Positions 1-54,908 of a stretch of DNA of 64,000 bases are shown one piece after another. This DNA comes from a virus. The first letter of the stretch is position 1; each line of letters begins with the position of its first letter. The translations under genes were made by a program, and so were the position numbers. The notes under the pieces are model-generated. The model was not told where the DNA came from, searched no databases, and was given only the letters and a program-made list of their open reading frames with translations. Location of the stretch: the UHGV virus genome UHGV-0112973; one strand, 5' to 3'.

Positions 1-399
1 GACGTCATCGTCTGCGCGGAAATGGACGAACAGTGGGGCTATGTCGGGGCTAAATCGCGCCAGCGCTGGCTGTTTTACGCGTATGACAGGCTCCGGAAGA
101 CGGTTGTTGCGCACGTATTCGGTGAACGCACTATGGCGACGCTGGGGCGTCTTATGAGCCTGCTGTCACCCTTTGACGTGGTGATATGGATGACGGATGG
201 CTGGCCGCTGTATGAATCCCGCCTGAAGGGAAAGCTGCACGTAATCAGCAAGCGATATACGCAGCGAATTGAGCGGCATAACCTGAATCTGAGGCAGCAC
301 CTGGCACGGCTGGGACGGAAGTCGCTGTCGTTCTCAAAATCGGTGGAGCTGCATGACAAAGTCATCGGGCATTATCTGAACATAAAACACTATCAATAA
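1..399 (+). CDS. insB: IS1 transposase InsB, C-terminal part (5' end outside window)
   Basis: Translation ...[43 protein letters not shown]...HYLNIKHYQ matches remembered IS1 InsB. Confidence 0.85.
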
Positions 400-414
400 G
401 TTGGAGTCATTACC
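1..414 (+). mobile_element. IS1 insertion sequence, right-hand portion (window begins inside the element)
   Basis: InsB reading frame runs from base 1; element ends with the IS1 terminal repeat ...caataagttggagtcattacc at 414. Confidence 0.85.
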
Positions 415-417
415 GAC

Positions 418-771
418 GTGGCAATAAAGAATAAGAAGTCACAAGTTAAAAAAACAAAAAGATCAGTTTCCGGCGGAGCCGGAACGACCAGACTCAAAAA
501 ATTGACTTCATGGATCGCTGAGGCAAAAGCAAAGGCTGACAATCTGCGGTTATCCAAAAAACGCGCTCAAAAACATGAGTTCAAGCAGAAAGTAGAGGCG
601 GCAGCGCGGAAATATGCTTACCTGAAGAACAAGCGTTCTCCTGATATTGACGGGGTATCAAACTTCGATAATTTGCCGCATTGCATGACGGTAAACGAAG
701 CTCTTAATGCGGTTTTAGCCAAAAATAAAGATAACGAACAATGGGGTATACCGGCAGGATTCAGAGGGTAA
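418..771 (+). CDS. hypothetical basic protein abutting the IS1 end (GTG start; may be the 3' remnant of a gene interrupted by IS1)
   Basis: ORF track 117 aa; starts 4 nt after IS1 terminus; no recognisable domain. Confidence 0.3.
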   Translation: MAIKNKKSQVKKTKRSVSGGAGTTRLKKLTSWIAEAKAKADNLRLSKKRAQKHEFKQKVEAAARKYAYLKNKRSPDIDGVSNFDNLPHCMTVNEALNAVLAKNKDNEQWGIPAGFRG

Positions 772-939
772 TGAATTGTTCTAATTATAACCATGCATAC
801 TTTCAACGCCTCTAGTTTGCCATGAGGCAAACTCATAGGCGTCCTGGTAAGAGGGCACTGTTGCCAAAACTGGACGTCCCATTATTGCAATTAATAAACA
901 ACTAACGGACAATTCTACCTAACAATAAGTGGAGTTAAC

Positions 940-1644
940 ATGTTGAACCGAAGAACATTTAATGTATTCTGCGATGAATCCTGTCACCTACTAAATGATC
1001 ATAATAAAGTCATGGTATTGGGTGCGCTTTGGTGCCCTGGCACTATCACAAAAAAAATTGCTAGAGACATCAAGGAATTAAAATTAAAACACAATCTAAA
1101 ACCTGATTTCGAAATCAAGTGGACTAAAGTATCTGCGTCCAAGGTTGAATTTTACTTAGATGTCGTAGATTACTTCTTCAGCAACCCAGCATTGCGCTTT
1201 AGAGGTGTTGTTGTTCCTGATAAAGAGCAACTGGACCATGCTCGATTCCATCAAGATCATAATACTTTCTATTATAAGATGTTTTTTTATGTCTTAAAAA
1301 ACATAATAGAAAGTAACAACACATACAATATCTACCTAGATATAAAAGATACTTTAGGTATTGAAAAAATTGAGAAATTAAGAGGAGTTCTTCACAATGA
1401 TCGCTATGATTACAATCATGAGTCGATAAACAGAATTCAACATATACGATCTCATGAAGTGCAACAATTGCAGCTAACGGATCTTTTCATTGGTGCGTTA
1501 GGCTACGTTCATCGAGGAATGAATAGCAACGCGGGAAAAATCCAAGTCATAAACAGGATAAAATCACATACAAACAGGGATTTACTAAAAAGCACTCTTC
1601 CAACAGAAAGTAAATTTAATATTTTCGTGTGGGAGGCTCGCTGA
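940..1644 (+). CDS. DUF3800-like protein (N-terminal DES motif), AT-rich accessory gene
   Basis: 234 aa; FNVFCDESCHL near N-terminus and length fit the DUF3800 family as I remember it; about 33 percent GC. Confidence 0.55.
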   Translation: MLNRRTFNVFCDESCHLLNDHNKVMVLGALWCPGTITKKIARDIKELKLKHNLKPDFEIKWTKVSASKVEFYLDVVDYFFSNPALRFRGVVVPDKEQLDHARFHQDHNTFYYKMFFYVLKNIIESNNTYNIYLDIKDTLGIEKIEKLRGVLHNDRYDYNHESINRIQHIRSHEVQQLQLTDLFIGALGYVHRGMNSNAGKIQVINRIKSHTNRDLLKSTLPTESKFNIFVWEAR

Positions 1645-2108
1645 TGCTTCAAATGCCAGATTTATTGTACTTCAATGGAAGTTGGCAAGAGTATATAGAC
1701 GATGTATATTATGTTGTCAGAGAAGACATTTTAATCTCTAATATAACGTTTAAGGGTCTCCCTGTTCGGTTACGTTATTCACCGGAATATGATGGGAAAG
1801 AGTTCGGATTTTGGCATTTAGTATCAGAGGGAAAAATAGAAGAAGAACGAATACCTGATCTTGAACGGTGTAAGCGGATCCGCTGGATCGCGCATATGAT
1901 AAGGAATTATAACCATTCCGATATATCATGTTGGTCTGAAAGACGAGGACCAACTGAAGAATGGGTAATCTGGAACGAGTGTGAAAACTACGTTGTTGTG
2001 CTATCCGCACGTAGAGACTATTGGCTTCTTAAAACAGCCTATGTTGTAACCTATAACAGTAAAATCAGAACACTCAAACAAAGCAGAAAAAGAGCGCTTG
2101 GGACATAA
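1644..2108 (+). CDS. hypothetical protein translationally coupled to the upstream DUF3800-like gene
   Basis: ATG at 1644 overlaps upstream TGA by 1 nt, GGGAGG RBS at 1631-1636; contains RIRWIAH (weak R-x5-H, HEPN-like). Confidence 0.5.
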   Translation: MLQMPDLLYFNGSWQEYIDDVYYVVREDILISNITFKGLPVRLRYSPEYDGKEFGFWHLVSEGKIEEERIPDLERCKRIRWIAHMIRNYNHSDISCWSERRGPTEEWVIWNECENYVVVLSARRDYWLLKTAYVVTYNSKIRTLKQSRKRALGT

Positions 2109-2115
2109 AAAAGCT

Positions 2116-2147
2116 GAACCCGACACATATTGCTATGTATCGGGTTC
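2116..2147 (+). terminator. imperfect hairpin downstream of the two-gene module
   Basis: gaacccgacacat...atgtatcgggttc inverted repeat; no strong U-tract. Confidence 0.3.
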
Positions 2148-2274
2148 GATCGCTCTTTCTACACATGGTAGATGAGTAAGGCAAATCTAACCGATCTACT
2201 TTAGCTTTTCAATAGCTAGCTATAACTTTCCGCACATATTCTTCTGATAATTCCAGTATGGCTGTTGGGTTTTC

Positions 2275-2571
2275 TTATGCTTTTCTGCGCAGAGGTGCAC
2301 ATTTATTCAGCAACAATAAATGTAATTCTTTGTTATTCCTAAGTATTTCGACACACCAATATCGTAACGTGTTCACTTCAAGTGTAGCCAGCACCTTATG
2401 TCGAAGTCCTCCCTCCCCTGCACATAACGATGACCGACATTCTGCTAAGGCACATAACCATGTATTGGCATCATAGAGAATCCAATAATGCTCCTCTGAA
2501 ATAGTTTTGCATCCAATTATTTCGAATCTTCGTTCTATCGTTTCAGGAGAGTATGAAAAATCAATTTCCAT
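2275..2571 (-). CDS. hypothetical protein (98 aa), possibly a gene remnant
   Basis: ORF track only; lies beyond the late-operon terminator; no domain recognised. Confidence 0.25.
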   Translation of the reverse strand: MEIDFSYSPETIERRFEIIGCKTISEEHYWILYDANTWLCALAECRSSLCAGEGGLRHKVLATLEVNTLRYWCVEILRNNKELHLLLLNKCAPLRRKA

Positions 2572-2612
2572 AATATGCTCAAAATTTCGCTATACCAGCA
2601 TAATTTAAGCAC

Positions 2613-2634
2613 AAAAAAAGCTCCCGCAGGAGCT
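2613..2634 (-). terminator. rho-independent terminator at the end of the minus-strand late operon
   Basis: agctcc-cgca-ggagct hairpin; on the minus strand it is followed by a run of U. Confidence 0.55.
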
Positions 2635-2655
2635 TTAAAATACAAGGGATGACTC

Positions 2656-3165
2656 TTAATCCCACTCAATCCAGTTGTAAACGATACGAAGTGACGGGCG
2701 CACAGCGGCAGTCACATCTTCGGTACTAAAGTCGATTGCATCACTGTAGATTTTGCAGTCCAACATTTCAATTGTTGTAGCAGCTTTTGTCACAGCGTTA
2801 ACCCCGGAAGATTTGGATTCAGGGGTCGCAGCCATCGTGATATCAACATAGTCCTTCGCCGCAATGCGATCCTTGATGAACTGAAGAATATCGCCTTCGA
2901 TAGTCTCCACGCACTGGACCTGGATTTCCCCAGAGTTTCGAATTGGTCCGTGCTGGTTGAACTTCACACCATTCGGACCATAGTCCTCCACATCCTCGCG
3001 GGTCATTTCAGGAATTTGCGACGTGCGAACCAGTACGCTGATATCTTCATGGCCTGCAAAAGTGAGCTGGAATTCAGAAGATACCAGTCGTTCGCCTTTG
3101 GCCGCGTTGGCAGTATAGCGGCCCTTAATAAATTTACGGTTTCCCTTAGTGTTATTGTGCCCCAT
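2656..3165 (-). CDS. phage structural protein (tail-associated, last gene of the late operon containing sheath and head genes)
   Basis: 169 aa ORF co-oriented and contiguous with sheath gene; assignment by synteny only. Confidence 0.45.
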   Translation of the reverse strand: MGHNNTKGNRKFIKGRYTANAAKGERLVSSEFQLTFAGHEDISVLVRTSQIPEMTREDVEDYGPNGVKFNQHGPIRNSGEIQVQCVETIEGDILQFIKDRIAAKDYVDITMAATPESKSSGVNAVTKAATTIEMLDCKIYSDAIDFSTEDVTAAVRPSLRIVYNWIEWD

Positions 3166-3176
3166 ATAAAATCCTT

Positions 3177-3758
3177 TTACTGGAACGCCCGAACAATATC
3201 GGAGCTGTTATATATCGAAGAACCGGTCAACTGGAGGTTGACGGTGTTTTTCAGGAAATGCCCATTGCTGTCCCTGGGCGCATCGAGATCGAAACTTATG
3301 TCCTGGATAGCGACATCAATGATGTTGATCCGGCGACCAATGTTTAGCGTCACGCGCTCCGGGATTCGACCACCAATACTGGCATCTTTAAGTTCCGGGC
3401 TAATCATCGCTGACAATGCGGCGATAGCTCCTGAAACCTCCGTGAATGGGTCAAACAAAGCGATGAAAGTTACTGGCAGCGTGAAAGTCGGCGGTGTTCC
3501 CCCTTCCCAAACCATTAAGCTGTTCCAACGGGCAACCGACGTTGTTTCAGTACCAACCTGCGCAAAACCACTGAAGGCACCAGCAACAGATCCCATGGAC
3601 ATACCGGTAAACGGCGCTTCCCAATTCTGGGCCATGTTCATTGCCGCCCCCTGGCTGATATATCCGGTAACCTGGTACTGAGAGTTCGTTAAAGTAACTT
3701 TCAGAAATGGCGATACACCGTCAGCCTGGCTGTAAACCCCATAAGGAATAGGTGCCAT
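3177..3758 (-). CDS. phage structural or morphogenetic protein
   Basis: 193 aa ORF in the same operon; synteny only. Confidence 0.45.
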   Translation of the reverse strand: MAPIPYGVYSQADGVSPFLKVTLTNSQYQVTGYISQGAAMNMAQNWEAPFTGMSMGSVAGAFSGFAQVGTETTSVARWNSLMVWEGGTPPTFTLPVTFIALFDPFTEVSGAIAALSAMISPELKDASIGGRIPERVTLNIGRRINIIDVAIQDISFDLDAPRDSNGHFLKNTVNLQLTGSSIYNSSDIVRAFQ

Positions 3759-3793
3759 TCAAGTTAAAGGCCGGAGTTCTCCGGCCTCCTCCT

Positions 3794-4609
3794 TTAGCCA
3801 AGGCGCTTACGGCGCAGTTTCATTGACTTTTTGCGGGCAAGTTTTGCCGCGCCGGTCTGGGCTTTTCGACGCGCTTTTTTCAGCGCCGATTTTTGAGCCG
3901 CAGTCAGACGTTTTTTACGCAGGCGTTTACGGATGAGTTTGATCTCACCGTTACGAACAACCTTCTTAAATGCTTCAGTCAGCATTTCATCAGAAGTGCC
4001 AGCAACAACAAACGCCGCTTCTAGTTCGTCGCGGTCGTCGCTATCTAAACCAGCGATAGAGGCACCAACATCAGCAGCTGCGTCGTCGTCTTCATCGTCA
4101 GCCAGTGCTTCGATCAGGTCATCATCTACACCGCATGCTGCGAGGAAGTCAGCAACATTTGCCCATGCTTCGTTATAGGCATCGTCCTGTTCTTCTGTAA
4201 CTTCGGAGTCGTCGTCATCAGAGATACCAGCGATAGCCTGAACGAAACCATCAAGGGAGTCGAAAGTCAGATCACCGCTATCAGCCCAGGCGAAAACGGC
4301 GTCGGCCGCATCACTCAACGCATTTTGCATAGCACTTCGATTTGCAGCTTCCAGAATCATCTGGTGCGCCTGTTCGACGGTCCATTCTTTACCGTCTTTC
4401 CCTTCCAGGATTTGCTCAGGAGCCTGGGCAGATGGAACGTTATCGTTAGTCTGTGCCGCCGGTTCCGGATTATTATTAATAACCGGATCTGTTGGCGGTT
4501 CAGCGCTTGCTCGGGCAGACTCCATCAGCTGCACAGGATCAGAGTTCAAAGCGAAACGAGACAGTCCATTCCCCAAAAATGCCCCGGATTGAAAAAAGTT
4601 TTTGCTCAT
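3794..4609 (-). CDS. phage structural or scaffold-like protein with acidic core and strongly basic C-terminal tail
   Basis: 271 aa; D/E-rich centre and KR-rich C-terminus; immediately downstream of sheath gene. Confidence 0.45.
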   Translation of the reverse strand: MSKNFFQSGAFLGNGLSRFALNSDPVQLMESARASAEPPTDPVINNNPEPAAQTNDNVPSAQAPEQILEGKDGKEWTVEQAHQMILEAANRSAMQNALSDAADAVFAWADSGDLTFDSLDGFVQAIAGISDDDDSEVTEEQDDAYNEAWANVADFLAACGVDDDLIEALADDEDDDAAADVGASIAGLDSDDRDELEAAFVVAGTSDEMLTEAFKKVVRNGEIKLIRKRLRKKRLTAAQKSALKKARRKAQTGAAKLARKKSMKLRRKRLG

Positions 4610-6268: not shown

Positions 6269-7996
6269 TTACTCAGAGTCACCGGCATCAATCGTGTCGC
6301 CGCTTATGAAGTTAAGCCCGCCTTTTTTGGCCATTGTCAGCGTTACACGAGTGAAGTAATCAGCGCCGTTGCGTGGGTGCATATCGTTGATAGCCGAACC
6401 CCACAGTATGGTACGGTTGACCAGCGCCGGAGTGGTCGGATGCTGGAACGGGATAGCCGGGACAGCATCACCAGTCACGAAGCCTGCTTTACCCGGATTT
6501 TCATCACGGACGTAGCACAGCACATCCATCGAGCTGAACTGAATGTTCTCTGTCGTTAAGTTCTTACAAATACCAGCAGGTACTTCGTACACTTTCACGT
6601 TACCGAACAGGGTACCGATGTAGTGAACATACGGAGTCTGGATATAGTCTTCGGCTGGCTGGAAGAAATCCTTCGGCAACTGTTTGAAGAAAGATGCTGC
6701 ATCAGCACCAGCAAACATCCCCATCGCACCAGAAGATTTAACGCGCTCAATAATGTCGCGATATACAGTCTGGAATTTGCCACGAATGATGGTTGCCCAT
6801 ACATCAAAGGACTGGTTAACCGGCAGAGCGATGTCAAAGGTGTCGGTCGCAAGAGTACGCCAGATCATGATGCGAAGACGCAGCATATCCTGTTCATGAG
6901 ACAGGTATTCCTTCAGGGTGCGGAACTGTAGGGAACCCAGGTCCAGACCAAATTCACGCTGTGCTTCATACGCCGCCTGTACCGTGTGCTCAGCCGCGAT
7001 AACGAACTGGCTTGGGAACAGGGTGTATTTCTTCATTTCGTGGTTGATCAGCGGGATCAGCTCAGGAGCGGCTTCAATATTGATTTCCGTCTCAATTGCG
7101 ATCTCAGTGCCTTTATCCGGCGCTTTGGAGAACGACAGGGCAATCTGACCAATGTTGTAGTTCAGAGAGCAGGTAACAGTGATTTGCTCACCAGCAGCAT
7201 TAGTAAACGAGTGAAGTAGGCTGCCGGAACCGTTATCAACAACAGACTTAATACGGTTAACGTAGATGTTAGTGCGACCTTTTCGGATTGGTACATTCTG
7301 GCCTTCGAAGTCTTCCATCTTGAAGGTTGCGGTTTTGCTGGTGCCATCGGAGCTTGCCACCAGCACATAGCGGCGGCGTAACTGGCTGTACACACCGACG
7401 GATTGCATGTCCAGAACATCACCAGCAGCATAAGAACCAAAAGAGGAACCTGCCACGTTAAAGACTTCATAGATGTCGGACTGGTCACGCGTAACCGGAA
7501 TGAAGGTACACGCATCAGCGGTAGCTGCCCCCAACTGAACAGGCAGGATCATCGCGAGGAATAAAGGCAGACGCATAACACCGTCAGAAACGCTCATCAT
7601 CTCTGCTGCGACGGATTCCAGCATCGCTTTATTAGTGGCATCCATGCTATTGCGGGTGGACTCAATCAGGCAGTTTTCCAGCGTCTGGTGGCAGGAGGCC
7701 AGAATTTCCGGACGCGGCATAGATTTATGTGCTGCGGCGTAGTCAGCCAGTGCACTTGCCCACGCTGTAGCGATTTGAGCGGTGGCATTATCAGAGATAC
7801 CCGCAAAAACCGGGTCTTTACGTGCAGCTTCAAGGATAGATGCGGCACGCGCGGCATCATCTTTAATGAATTGGTTATCAGTACCGAACTGCGCAGTGCT
7901 TGCCCAGCCAAGCACAGCTTTAGAGCGTTTTGCGATATCTGCAATACGATTCTGGTATTCGCGTAAGTTACTCAATTTACTCTTCCTTAAACACAA
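6269..7996 (-). CDS. major head protein (P1 gene 23-like)
   Basis: 575 aa ORF directly adjacent to parS as in P1; assignment by size and synteny. Confidence 0.6.
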   Translation of the reverse strand: MCLRKSKLSNLREYQNRIADIAKRSKAVLGWASTAQFGTDNQFIKDDAARAASILEAARKDPVFAGISDNATAQIATAWASALADYAAAHKSMPRPEILASCHQTLENCLIESTRNSMDATNKAMLESVAAEMMSVSDGVMRLPLFLAMILPVQLGAATADACTFIPVTRDQSDIYEVFNVAGSSFGSYAAGDVLDMQSVGVYSQLRRRYVLVASSDGTSKTATFKMEDFEGQNVPIRKGRTNIYVNRIKSVVDNGSGSLLHSFTNAAGEQITVTCSLNYNIGQIALSFSKAPDKGTEIAIETEINIEAAPELIPLINHEMKKYTLFPSQFVIAAEHTVQAAYEAQREFGLDLGSLQFRTLKEYLSHEQDMLRLRIMIWRTLATDTFDIALPVNQSFDVWATIIRGKFQTVYRDIIERVKSSGAMGMFAGADAASFFKQLPKDFFQPAEDYIQTPYVHYIGTLFGNVKVYEVPAGICKNLTTENIQFSSMDVLCYVRDENPGKAGFVTGDAVPAIPFQHPTTPALVNRTILWGSAINDMHPRNGADYFTRVTLTMAKKGGLNFISGDTIDAGDSE

Positions 7997-8037
7997 GGCA
8001 CTTGTGTGAATCCCTTTTCGGAAGAGATTTTATTGAA

Positions 8038-8048
8038 AGTCACTTGTT
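8038..8048 (-). promoter_or_regulatory. putative late-promoter box upstream of head gene
   Basis: AACAAGTGACT on the gene strand; the same 11-mer occurs upstream of the portal gene. Confidence 0.35.
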
Positions 8049-8107
8049 GACTTTCTCGTGACAAGCAATTTTTTTATTTTTTTCGGGAGTAGGGGCGGAA
8101 GGTAAAA

Positions 8108-8200
8108 TCCAAGGTGAAATCGTGGCGATTTCACCTTGAAATTTTAGATGGATTTACTTTAAAAACAGTAGGTTAATAGTGAAATTTGAATGGCGAAAGT
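8108..8200 (-). promoter_or_regulatory. parS: parS centromere-like partition site
   Basis: Minus strand reads TCGCCATTCAAATTTCAC...ATTTCAAGGTGAAATCGCCACGATTTCAC with box A (ATTTCAC) and box B (TCGCCA) motifs right after parB. Confidence 0.85.
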
Positions 8201-9202
8201 TTAAGGCTTCGGCTTTTTATCGAGGCTCTTTCTAAGGATATGCCCAATCATCCTGTCGAGTTCTTCCTGTAGCTCTTTTGAAAGTCGATTAAACTCATAA
8301 GAAAATGCACGGCCTTTCACGCGCTTCCTTGCAAAGCGATCCTTGTCCTCAAATTTCCATAATTCAGTAACTACGGACTTATCTTTAGAACCTTTATCCG
8401 TGAGTAGTGAGGCTTCCTTTGTTATCAAGCGCAGGATTTTATTTTTAACTTCATCTTCGGCCATTTCTTCAATGGATAAGATGTCGTTTATTTCCGGGGA
8501 TATGTTTTGAATAAGCTGATCAAACTCTAAATTCTTGTTCCCCATTTCGTCGCCAACAGCACAAAGCGTTTTGTAGTCCGAAAAGGTTAATTCCGACTGC
8601 ACAGGGAAAAGGGCGACTAATTCTTCCGGAGCACTCGCTGCCTGGAGAGCACGCGTGACCTTCGCCTGAGACAGCCCTTCTTTGGCTGCAATATCCTTCT
8701 GACTCATCCCATCATTTTTCATTCGCATCAAACGCAGACCTATTTCTCGAATGCTGTGCTGCAATGCTGTCTGAACGTCTTTCGCTAAATTTTGCGCTTC
8801 CTGAACGCTGATCTCCTGGTCCGTGACTAAAACCCGCAACCCTACGTTCTCTAAGATGGCAGAAGCTCGACGCCGGGAACCATCCAAAATTTCAATTTTC
8901 CCTGTAGCCCGTCTAACACCTATTGCAGGGTAAAATTGCTGATGCTTAATAGTGCTTCGGATACTTTTTAATGATTTTGGCGTAAGAGATGCCTGGTCAC
9001 GCCCGTTGTTATGCTGATCAACAAAGGTATCGCTTTCTACCTGGTTCGGAGGTATTACCTCTTCAATAAATGTGGCCTGGCGACCAGTTGATAACTTGAA
9101 TACCTGCTCGACTCGATCGCCAGAGGCTGAAGAACTATCAAATCCGCTTAATATTGAAGGATTAAGGGTTCGCCCAATTGTTGGTCTGTTTTTCTTTGAC
9201 AT
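8201..9202 (-). CDS. parB: plasmid partition protein ParB
   Basis: 333 aa; sequence recognised as P1 ParB along its length. Confidence 0.96.
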   Translation of the reverse strand: MSKKNRPTIGRTLNPSILSGFDSSSASGDRVEQVFKLSTGRQATFIEEVIPPNQVESDTFVDQHNNGRDQASLTPKSLKSIRSTIKHQQFYPAIGVRRATGKIEILDGSRRRASAILENVGLRVLVTDQEISVQEAQNLAKDVQTALQHSIREIGLRLMRMKNDGMSQKDIAAKEGLSQAKVTRALQAASAPEELVALFPVQSELTFSDYKTLCAVGDEMGNKNLEFDQLIQNISPEINDILSIEEMAEDEVKNKILRLITKEASLLTDKGSKDKSVVTELWKFEDKDRFARKRVKGRAFSYEFNRLSKELQEELDRMIGHILRKSLDKKPKP

Positions 9203-9218
9203 GGGGGTTTCTTACTCC

Positions 9219-52658: not shown

Positions 52659-53300
52659 ATGGATAAGAAAATATGCGTTGTTTCGATGAGCGTCGGCAAA
52701 CCGGCGTCAATGACTGCTGCATGGATCAATAACGAGCTGATAATGGCTGAGCGGACCAGCTACCCTGAACGCCGCCGCGATATGGAACTCCAGCTGCTGC
52801 GCGAATTGCGAGAAAAAGAGGAAAAGGGTTTTATCGTGCTGGTGGAAGAGGAAAACAGCTTTATTACTGGTCGAGTTGGCCAGCGTGTAAGGTTGCGCGA
52901 TCCCTTCATGAACGGCAGGCCGGTACTGATTGAAGCAATGCAGATTTACAAGGAGCTGGAACGCCAGAAAGCGATCAAGTTACCGCGCAAGGAATCCGGC
53001 AAATACATCCTCCACCAAAGCATCTTCGATTCCGAACACGATAAAAAAGGCGATGAATTTTTCAACATCAACTGGAGCGAAATAACGACAGAGCATGTTC
53101 TGACGTTACTATGTTGCTTTGCGACGGAATACAACAACGTTGCCAGCGCCGACTACATCAGGGCAATGGCTGGAGAAGTTGAAGCCCGCCAGGAACCATC
53201 GTTACTAAGTCCACTTATTAACATAATTCTGGGTACCCAGACACTGGAACAAAAAAAAGTGCCGAAAGGGGTATTAACAGGCAAGCATAATTATTTCTAA
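52659..53300 (+). CDS. hypothetical protein at P1 mat position (start set at MDKKICVV)
   Basis: 213 aa; synteny between ref and the res-mod slot. Confidence 0.45.
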   Translation: MDKKICVVSMSVGKPASMTAAWINNELIMAERTSYPERRRDMELQLLRELREKEEKGFIVLVEEENSFITGRVGQRVRLRDPFMNGRPVLIEAMQIYKELERQKAIKLPRKESGKYILHQSIFDSEHDKKGDEFFNINWSEITTEHVLTLLCCFATEYNNVASADYIRAMAGEVEARQEPSLLSPLINIILGTQTLEQKKVPKGVLTGKHNYF

Positions 53301-53498
53301 TAATTTATAGTGGGGACTTTTGATGGTGTAAAACCCCATGAATTATTATTTTTTAGTTTTTTGATTCTATTTTTTTTGCATTACCCGTCATAAAAATGAG
53401 CTTGCTTACATAATAGAAAATTATTTTATCAACACTATTACAACAAACGATTATCACTGATAACATGAGTCCTTTGAAAACAAAGGACTCACCATACT

Positions 53499-54107
53499 AT
53501 GTCTAATACCTCGGCAAATGAAATTGTACCGCACTTACCGCTAATTTTCGAAAATGAAGCTAATGGGATTCTTCAGGATCTGGCCTATACTCCATCGCTT
53601 ATGGGGTTGATGATGTTCCCGACAGAAGAGGAGCTGAAAGCAGCGAGAAGCTACATAATTAACGTTTTTGAAGAGTGTTACCGAGCCGGTCATTTGCGCA
53701 TTATGGGCTTTACTAATGAAGAAAACTTGTTCGGATACGCCTTAATCTTCGGACATCCATCGGGAAATTTTCCGTTGTACTGTCATAAAATATATGTATA
53801 TGAGCAATATCGTGGTAATGGACTTGGAAGTAATATACTGGCAGAAATACTTGCATTTCCAAATGAGGTCGCTTTGATTTGCCAGTCTGATTTGGTTCCT
53901 TTTTATGAATCAGCCGGAATGCACTTTAAAGGAAATTACACCACTCCATCAGTCGCCAATTTCAAAAAAACTCGCGGCATGTATGAGGGGCTTTGTTTGA
54001 TGAGCACTGAAAAAAATGCAAACTCTAATGGTGTACCTATATTCATGCTGAACGATAACGATATTGATAACATCATACAGGCTATCGCATCATCGGCACC
54101 ACGATAA
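53499..54107 (+). CDS. GNAT-family N-acetyltransferase (lone, AT-rich) at the position of P1 res-mod
   Basis: 202 aa; acetyl-CoA motif A EQYRGNGLGSNIL; AT-rich upstream region. Confidence 0.65.
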   Translation: MSNTSANEIVPHLPLIFENEANGILQDLAYTPSLMGLMMFPTEEELKAARSYIINVFEECYRAGHLRIMGFTNEENLFGYALIFGHPSGNFPLYCHKIYVYEQYRGNGLGSNILAEILAFPNEVALICQSDLVPFYESAGMHFKGNYTTPSVANFKKTRGMYEGLCLMSTEKNANSNGVPIFMLNDNDIDNIIQAIASSAPR

Positions 54108-54162
54108 TATTAATAATTCATCTCGCCGCAGGAACTACAAACCAGTTGATTGTTTGTGAAAC

Positions 54163-54180
54163 GCCCGGTGCAAACCGGGC
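54163..54180 (-). terminator. hairpin between convergent GNAT and lxc genes
   Basis: gcccggt-gcaa-accgggc. Confidence 0.4.
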
Positions 54181-54189
54181 CAACAAAAC

Positions 54190-54438
54190 TCAATCAGCAT
54201 TGAGAAGCAATGCATTATCTATGATGATCTGCTCCCATTCTTCGAATGCCCGGTCGCGGACGCCCTGGGGAACACTGTTAGTTTTGAAATCGACGACCGT
54301 ACGCCATTTCCCGTCCGGACGGTACATGCGCAGAGCTTTACTTCCCCCTTCCCTGCGCACCTCAACGTTATGCTTATCAGCAAACTCTTGTAATGCTCGT
54401 AGCGTCCCATGCTTTACTGTGTAGTATCGCTTTTTCAA
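54190..54438 (-). CDS. lxc: Lxc (by position and size)
   Basis: 82 aa ORF downstream of ulx/darB. Confidence 0.55.
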   Translation of the reverse strand: MKKRYYTVKHGTLRALQEFADKHNVEVRREGGSKALRMYRPDGKWRTVVDFKTNSVPQGVRDRAFEEWEQIIIDNALLLNAD

Positions 54439-54875
54439 GTTTTCTCTCCAGCCTGTGCCAAGGCTTCAACTTCCAAATCGTAAGACTCAAACTCATAGTC
54501 CTGGTCGTCAACTTCTTCAGGCACTGGCAGTAAATGCCAGGCTGAGTATATCTGACCATTATCAAAACGCTCCTGGCTGTAGAGCGTCGCGGCTATGAGT
54601 GTTAGCGCCGGGCGGTCATAACGGTAAATTTTGCGAACGTCACGGTCAACGAGACGACCGAAATTACCATAACCGCGCTCCAGTAATAATTTTTTAATTT
54701 CCGGCCAGTATGGACCATAGCTGCGGTACAGGCGGGGATTTTTCAGTAATCGCCCGCGTAGCCCTGACAGGAAGAAATCAACGTATTCGTCTTCTGTCTT
54801 TCCTAACAACGCTGTACGGAGTACCGCCTCAAGATATGTTTTATTCGGTTTTATTGTATCAGATAGTGTGGCCAT
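54435..54875 (-). CDS. ulx: Ulx (by position)
   Basis: 146 aa ORF between darB and lxc. Confidence 0.55.
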   Translation of the reverse strand: MATLSDTIKPNKTYLEAVLRTALLGKTEDEYVDFFLSGLRGRLLKNPRLYRSYGPYWPEIKKLLLERGYGNFGRLVDRDVRKIYRYDRPALTLIAATLYSQERFDNGQIYSAWHLLPVPEEVDDQDYEFESYDLEVEALAQAGEKT

Positions 54876-54908
54876 ATTATGCGACGCCCGGCGAACCGGG
54901 CGCTCCTG

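Follow-up and report, generated by a model that had tools for sequence, protein, structure and literature searches.

The rlfA-rlfB pair of a P1-like phage-plasmid, a candidate two-gene conflict module with a predicted RNase H2-like DUF3800 protein

What is a pair of low-GC, overlapping genes doing beside the insertion sequence IS1 in a P1-like phage-plasmid? The pair lies in UHGV virus genome UHGV-0112973, of which we analysed a 64,000-nt stretch (hereafter the window). An initial annotation of this DNA had described two translationally coupled open reading frames (ORFs) and suggested horizontally acquired cargo, possibly a toxin or defence pair. We identify the genes as rlfA and rlfB of bacteriophage P1, and a toxin or defence pair is still the best available reading, given the matches of both proteins to the PADLOC candidate system PDC-M04 and the embedding of their relatives in type I restriction-modification (R-M) operons. 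Our favoured explanation, to which we give a probability of roughly 55%, is that rlfAB is an accessory two-gene conflict module, serving defence or abortive infection, in which an RNase H2-like nuclease works with an obligate small partner.

By alignment, the genes are P1's own. Window positions 415-2700 match phages P1, P7 and JL22 at 96.5-97.6% nucleotide identity, and the P1-type annotations beneath that match are repL, rlfA, rlfB (rapA and rapB in P7), pmgF and bplB. The pair itself, at about 96.5% nucleotide identity, occupies the position that is native to it in P1 and P7, with repL on one side and pmgF on the other. A copy 100% identical to that of the window is carried by plasmid NZ_AP026785.1, and the remaining window is likewise that of a P1-like phage-plasmid, with sheath, head and par/rep genes, dmt, pacAB, c1, cre and darB. 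The sole comment on rlfA/rlfB in the P1 GenBank record is that they are 'possibly associated with lytic replication'. The initial annotation had itself raised P1 rlfA/rlfB as a possible match, and held that homology to conserved P1 backbone genes of known non-defence function would count against a defence role; the genes are indeed those of P1, but the replication label is positional only, and they are accessory rather than core.

Both genes lie on the forward strand, rlfA at 940-1644 (234 aa, ATG start) and rlfB at 1644-2108 (154 aa plus stop, where 155 aa had been given at first). The TGA stop of rlfA (1642-1644) and the ATG of rlfB (1644-1646) share a single nucleotide in a TGATG overlap; this overlap and the GGGAGG ribosome-binding site were described correctly from the outset. 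Because their homologues number in the thousands, sequence comparison marks them as real genes and not chance ORFs. GC content is 35.0% in rlfA, 38.9% in rlfB and 36.6% across the pair, against 48.0% for the whole window, so that the contrast first reported is real, although the figure of 33% was too low. As the lowest-GC stretch in the 64 kb (0.3rd percentile among same-size windows), the rlfAB region is compositionally foreign.

RlfA is a DUF3800 protein with a predicted RNase H2-like fold. Profile (hidden Markov model) searches, one of the checks proposed initially, match it to Pfam DUF3800 (PF12686) at 54.1 bits (cut-off 21, E = 3.6e-14) over profile positions 1-148 of 149, and the DES motif that had prompted a DUF3800-like label is part of a CDESCH motif at residues 11-16. 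Among 77 homologues, D12-E13 and Q178-x-x-D181 are at least 95% conserved, which fits the N-terminal DE and C-terminal QxxD motifs that define DUF3800 (PMC7736814). The conserved residues include C11, D12, E13, S14 and H16; E58, K60 and W61; H100; H107; D134, K136 and D137; and Q178 and D181, with D12, E13, D134 and D181 each at 95% or above in the same 77 homologues. Structures were predicted for RlfA and RlfB singly. In the AlphaFold2 model of RlfA (predicted local distance difference test, pLDDT, 88.5), these four acidic residues fall at the secondary-structure positions expected of the RNase H2 acidic tetrad, as assessed without spatial superposition, and the model gives RlfA a predicted RNase H2-like fold with a D-E-D-D set.

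This likeness is one of fold. Pfam returned DUF3800 alone for RlfA, with no RNase HII match, and searching PDB sequences with the RlfA profile yielded noise only and nothing meaningful; NCBIfam had no match for RlfA or RlfB. With the type 2 RNases H (RNase HII/H2A and RNase HIII), RlfA shares a predicted fold but not sequence-family membership. It differs from them also in its extra invariant residues C11, H16, K60, H100, H107 and K136, and in being always paired with RlfB.

RlfB belongs to a large family for which Pfam has no match. Its members form 1,771 clusters at 50% identity, nearly all of them stand-alone proteins of 150-190 aa, and across 150 diverse representatives a signature of F56-W57-H58, R69, R75, R78, W81 and W97 is at least 90% conserved, with D72 also among the signature residues. 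In the RlfB model (pLDDT 90.8), helices at the N-terminus precede an antiparallel sheet of four strands and a C-terminal helix that is basic. A Foldseek search with this model gave no significant match; the best structural neighbours are type II toxin RNases, a weak resemblance in which none reaches significance. RlfB has no sequence-profile match to any toxin family, in which it differs from the RelE, ParE, colicin D and CdiA (BECR-fold) RNase toxins. A Pfam scan of 150 diverse relatives likewise found no toxin family, returning one DUF4258 match at E = 0.04, and the family profile found nothing among PDB sequences. We treat the weak, model-based resemblance to RelE/colicin-D-type RNase toxins as a lead rather than a result.

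Two other proposals for RlfB fall away. The initial annotation had seen a HEPN-like R-x5-H motif in the second protein; the string R78...H84 does exist and R78 is conserved, but homologues have A, S, K, R or W in place of H84, and the model shows an alpha/beta fold containing a sheet of four strands, not an all-alpha helical bundle. In databases, RlfB homologues are labelled 'oxidoreductase' (NCBI) or 'replication protein' (PHROGs, RefSeq). No domain, profile or fold result stands behind either label, and both names are clearly unsupported.

The two genes travel together across bacterial phyla. A pattern scan of one genome per species recovered 411 RlfB relatives. Pairing was counted in the best 80 loci: in 79, RlfB directly follows an RlfA homologue encoded on its own strand, and the lone exception is cut off at a contig edge. 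Pair-bearing phyla include Proteobacteria, Bacteroidota, Planctomycetota, Chloroflexota, Cyanobacteria, Nitrospirota, Verrucomicrobiota and Saccharibacteria. The RlfB-frame start overlaps the RlfA stop (ATGA or TGATG type) in 49 of 78 loci and lies within 10 nt in 57 of 78; because this arrangement recurs so widely, the sequences indicate that translational coupling is an ancestral and conserved feature of the pair. Such coupling would fit an RlfA-RlfB complex of fixed ratio. In Methylomonas, the RlfB homologue is cut to 57 aa (8699-8872 of the locus sequence) beside an intact RlfA, and is either a decaying copy or a sign that RlfA alone is tolerated.

PADLOC places the pair among candidate defence systems. 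RlfA matches PDC-M04A at 1.2e-95 and RlfB matches PDC-M04B at 9e-52, adjacent on one strand, and by these matches rlfAB is system PDC-M04, itself a prediction. The PDC systems, candidates that are either unpublished or not validated, go back to genes that recur inside type I R-M, BREX and DISARM loci (Payne et al., bioRxiv 10.1101/2024.01.29.577857), and a separate study observed phage protection in 4 of 8 other candidates that it tested (PMC12881386). PDC-M04 is named in no paper that we found, and none reports a test of rlfAB or PDC-M04.

The type I R-M embedding from which such candidates come is reproduced in our own set of loci. Of the 44 loci in which each flank reaches 4 kb or more, 12 have the arrangement hsdM/S-[rlfA-rlfB]-hsdR on one strand, and 17 have a type I R-M gene on at least one side. 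When the two nearest neighbours per side were tallied over 31 loci, type I R-M families headed both the Pfam and the PADLOC lists. A Methylomonas operon, the one with the truncated RlfB, reads HsdM-HsdS-RlfA-RlfB-HsdR, and one in Algoriphagus reads HsdM-AbiP2 reverse transcriptase-RlfA-RlfB-HsdR-unknown-pAgo. In the latter (6470-9214 of the locus sequence), the AbiP2-type reverse transcriptase (PADLOC E = 1.7e-197) lies 22 nt upstream of the RlfA homologue. Given that type VII retrons have DUF3800 as their effector, a functional link between the two is conceivable; stacking of independent systems is equally possible. Elsewhere, in chromosomes of E. coli, Enterobacter ludwigii and Burkholderia multivorans, the pair directly follows an integrase at the edge of a prophage or mobilisable island. 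An Rfam scan of window positions 1-4000 (E <= 1) found no DUF3800-associated RNA motif and only a sub-threshold STnc130, and a scan of 20 homologous loci found tRNAs only, with no DUF3800 motif.

Within P1-like elements, rlfAB is an accessory. Knock-down by CRISPR interference left P1 plating efficiency at 1.3 for rlfA and 0.88 for rlfB (PMC10695390). PLSDB holds 101 plasmids with rlfAB (all at 95% identity or higher, 99 of them carrying at least 80% of the pair) versus 513 with the adjacent repL segment, so that about a fifth of P1-like plasmids carry rlfAB and some 80% of those with this repL do not. The rlfA-rlfB-pmgF segment is one of eight variable low-GC regions in P1-like phage-plasmids (PMC9603915), and several described elements have lost it or hold other sequence in its place (PMC6906374). 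Of 2.9 million viral contigs, just 19 have the pair, about 16 of them P1-like. The pair is dispensable for P1 lytic growth and not always inherited together with repL. Because knock-down leaves plating near 1, presence on plasmids is patchy, the slot is variable and the pair is rare in viral contigs, we conclude that rlfAB is accessory cargo acquired by the P1 lineage, and not a general phage replication function.

The repL-bplB interval (window 772-2655) is a cargo hotspot of P1-like phages. In place of rlfA-rlfB-pmgF, the slot is taken in MH422554 by a toxin gene of the Hok/Gef family (annotated MokW; Pfam E = 2.4e-22) and in ON470615 by a 171-aa ORF that has neither an annotation nor a Pfam or PADLOC match. 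The features of the left end of the window, through pmgF, are as follows.

1-414, plus strand: 3' part of an IS1 copy (insB' ORF at 22-399); its right terminal sequence ends ...GTTGGAGTCATTACC at 414, and the P1 match starts at 415
415-771, plus strand: 357-nt 3' fragment of repL (P1 51215-51571, roughly codons 164-281); 98% identity to P1, PHROG repL-like match
775-791, plus strand: C1 repressor operator Orlf (former Op55), mapped from the P1 annotation via alignment
814-833, plus strand: inverted repeat AGTTTGCC-ATGA-GGCAAACT with an 8-bp stem, read from the sequence and identical in P1
885-913, plus strand: predicted sigma-70 promoter PrlfA (TTGCAA ... GACAAT), from the P1 annotation and alignment, identical to P1
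940-1644, plus strand: rlfA, 234-aa DUF3800 protein (Pfam, PADLOC PDC-M04A, predicted RNase H2-like fold)
1631-1636, plus strand: GGGAGG ribosome-binding site of rlfB within the end of rlfA, 7 nt before the rlfB ATG
1644-2108, plus strand: rlfB, 154 aa, of a family without a Pfam entry (PADLOC PDC-M04B match)
2116-2147, no strand assigned: hairpin with a 14-bp stem between convergent rlfB and pmgF, with a T-run on the minus strand
2275-2571, minus strand: pmgF, 98 aa, convergent with rlfB, in the same variable low-GC slot of P1-like elements

The control region is close to that of P1. The P1 GenBank record, from which we took the assignments of Orlf and PrlfA, places Orlf 4 nt after repL and PrlfA about 110 nt further on, and gives rlfA and rlfB a 1-base overlap. 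In the alignment, promoter and ribosome-binding site are unchanged from P1, and Orlf differs by a single C-to-T change (ATTGTTCTAATTATAAC here, ATTGCTCTAATTATAAC in P1) that falls in the conserved left half of the operator (ATTGTTCT... here, ATTGCTCT... in P1). A stricter consensus promoter scan missed PrlfA, whose promoter status is a prediction only. The inverted repeat at 814-833 lies between Orlf and PrlfA and lacks a T-run 3' of it. By its sequence, the hairpin at 2116-2147 looks like the terminator of pmgF and probably also ends the rlfAB transcript. Further along, in the pmgF-bplB gap, the weak Rfam match to STnc130 (window 2609-2636; 28 bits against a gathering threshold of 55, E = 0.28) falls on a terminator-like hairpin and is most likely just a terminator. 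In P1vir infection, rlfAB is induced early, together with repL (bioRxiv 10.64898/2025.12.28.696737).

What sets this locus apart from P1 is the IS1 copy in repL, besides the substitution in Orlf; slot, predicted promoter and 1-nt overlap are the same. IS1 entered repL at P1 coordinate 51214/51215, at about codon 164, splitting both the gene and its internal lytic origin oriL, and its right end at about 414 is separated from rlfA by 525 bp, made up of the 357-nt repL fragment and 168 nt of intergenic sequence. The window begins within IS1, so just one end of it is visible; IS1 annotations also underlie database matches of the junction region. A search of 5,426 complete E. coli genomes and of PLSDB did not return the exact IS1::repL junction, and no further IS1 copy with target duplications to match follows rlfB as far as position 2700. 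Judging from the interrupted gene, this element may be unable to replicate lytically, and an IS1-mediated deletion or rearrangement may lie left of the window start. IS1 also separates rlfAB from the kilA/repL promoters, which would leave the predicted PrlfA or read-through from IS1 to express the pair.

Another variable site lies far from the pair. Between mat and lxc/darB (window 53300-54900), the P1 res-mod genes (the EcoP1I type III restriction system) and their IS1 are absent, and about 0.9 kb there is unmatched in phage records. An ORF at 53499-54107 encodes a 202-aa GNAT-family acetyltransferase (Pfam E = 4e-6) with no PADLOC match; related phages have a RelA/SpoT-family gene in this slot.

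Combining these observations, we propose the following course of events for a conflict module. In the P1 lineage, rlfAB is held in a cargo slot of variable content that separates the lytic replicon from the tail genes. RlfA would most likely be a metal-dependent RNase H2-type nuclease acting on RNA:DNA hybrids or other structured nucleic acid, and RlfB, made in fixed proportion through translational coupling, would most likely join it in a complex, where it would either sense or regulate on behalf of the nuclease or serve as a further RNase effector, of RelE/colicin-D-like type. A cue from foreign nucleic acid or infection would release the nuclease activity, which would then halt phage or plasmid replication, or kill the cell in abortive infection.

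Several points weigh against this proposal. The literature offers no experimental demonstration that RlfA, RlfB or any PDC-M04 member defends against phage, is toxic or acts as a nuclease, and the DUF3800 literature is purely predictive. About 60% of the 44 loci have no adjoining recognisable type I R-M gene. The position of rlfAB behind a C1 operator, with early lytic induction alongside repL, is unexpected for a guard of the lysogen; because of this wiring, rlfAB may act in lytic growth rather than in the lysogen.

Comparison with known systems shows where the proposed module would belong. Both models of PDC-M04 match, in one-strand adjacency. Other DUF3800 contexts comprise the effectors of type VII retrons, TPR (tetratricopeptide repeat)-DUF3800 proteins beside Cas12a2/a3, Csx32 beside Cas13, and the DUF3800-associated RNA motifs. 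These resemble RlfA in their Pfam domain, in an RNase H-like fold predicted by others, and in being accessory modules of nucleic-acid-based immunity. They differ in the partner, which is a reverse transcriptase, a TPR domain or a noncoding RNA where RlfA has the dedicated small RlfB. The anticodon nucleases PrrC and RloC likewise sit between hsdS and hsdR, as RlfAB does in about a quarter of loci, and RlfAB too may include an RNase partner. In contrast to PrrC/RloC, rlfAB encodes no ABC (ATP-binding cassette)-ATPase domain and has no sequence or fold relation to PrrC, and a role as backup to R-M is only an analogy.

Could the pair instead be an addiction module? A toxic nuclease and its neutraliser would then stabilise the P1 plasmid prophage, and mobile elements elsewhere, by post-segregational killing and not by blocking phages. 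A small two-gene operon whose stop/start overlap is conserved across phyla would suit a toxin-antitoxin pair, as would the type II toxin RNases that are RlfB's best structural neighbours, the Hok/Gef type I toxin in the same slot of other P1-like phages, and the integrase-proximal cargo positions in integrative elements. Neither protein, however, has a recognisable DNA-binding antitoxin domain, and both are strongly conserved with enzyme-like invariant residues, which is unusual in a labile antitoxin. P1 already has phd-doc, and plasmid stabilisation leaves the frequent chromosomal embedding in type I R-M operons unexplained. We consider an addiction role unlikely but worth keeping in view; it overlaps with abortive infection, and the two may not be exclusive. 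A role in replication, as the original P1 annotation implies, strikes us as quite improbable. RlfA would work as an RNase H in processing the oriL transcript or R-loop or in primer removal, with RlfB as cofactor, and the position of the pair immediately downstream of repL/oriL and behind a C1 operator, its early co-induction with repL in P1vir infection, and the predicted RNase H2-like fold with a complete D-E-D-D set all speak for it. Yet knock-down does not reduce plating, some of the roughly 80% of plasmids that have this repL and lack rlfAB hold unrelated cargo instead, and homologous pairs are found in chromosomes across many phyla with no repL, often within R-M operons. The few viral contigs with the pair, almost all P1-like, argue the same way, and the PHROG/NCBI name 'replication protein' for RlfB is without domain support.

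Early induction and the C1 operator would equally suit a weapon of the phage: an early lytic pair, nuclease-like in its predicted folds, that destroys immune nucleic acid (retron msDNA, guide RNAs or signalling RNAs) or degrades host RNA during takeover, and DUF3800 is linked elsewhere to retrons, CRISPR loci and noncoding RNAs. Most homologues, however, are chromosomal and embedded in host defence operons, which puts them on the host side of the conflict, and the pair is very rare in phages outside the P1-like group; counter-defence is in our judgement very improbable. That the neighbouring IS1 mobilised the pair is scarcely credible. An IS1 at a distance of 525 bp and the low GC of the pair are what suggest it, and the initial annotation, which took them as signs of horizontally acquired cargo, implied as much; 'beside IS1' holds loosely, and the cargo is indeed foreign in composition and accessory. 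But pair and both flanks are colinear with P1 and P7, both of which lack IS1 here, so that the genes stand in their native P1 position, and the single visible IS1 end interrupts repL, as a separate insertion. Nor is the pair confined to this junction: the 99 plasmids with at least 80% of rlfAB contrast with a junction found in neither PLSDB nor the 5,426 E. coli genomes.

The genes (from P1 and P7 annotations), the domain (DUF3800) and the call as candidate defence (PDC-M04) were already known. They matter because P1, a classic E. coli phage that lends itself to genetics, has a member of the DUF3800 group, a domain of no known activity that recurs beside retrons, CRISPR effectors and orphan structured RNAs. 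The pair offers handles for study in the predicted RNase H2-like fold with its acidic tetrad and in a co-inherited partner with a His/Arg signature. A more far-reaching possibility, speculative and rather unlikely, is a new defence mechanism with RlfA-RlfB as its founding and readily tractable case. The RNase H2-like DUF3800 nuclease would detect an invader's RNA:DNA hybrids, or its replication intermediates that contain ribonucleotides, and together with RlfB would set off cleavage of RNA or DNA. On chromosomes, the system would be nested within type I restriction operons and serve as a second line in the manner of PrrC; in P1, it would be coupled to the lytic replicon under C1 control. If true, this would be the first function for DUF3800, a domain also met repeatedly next to retrons, Cas12a2/a3, Cas13 and eleven orphan RNA motifs.

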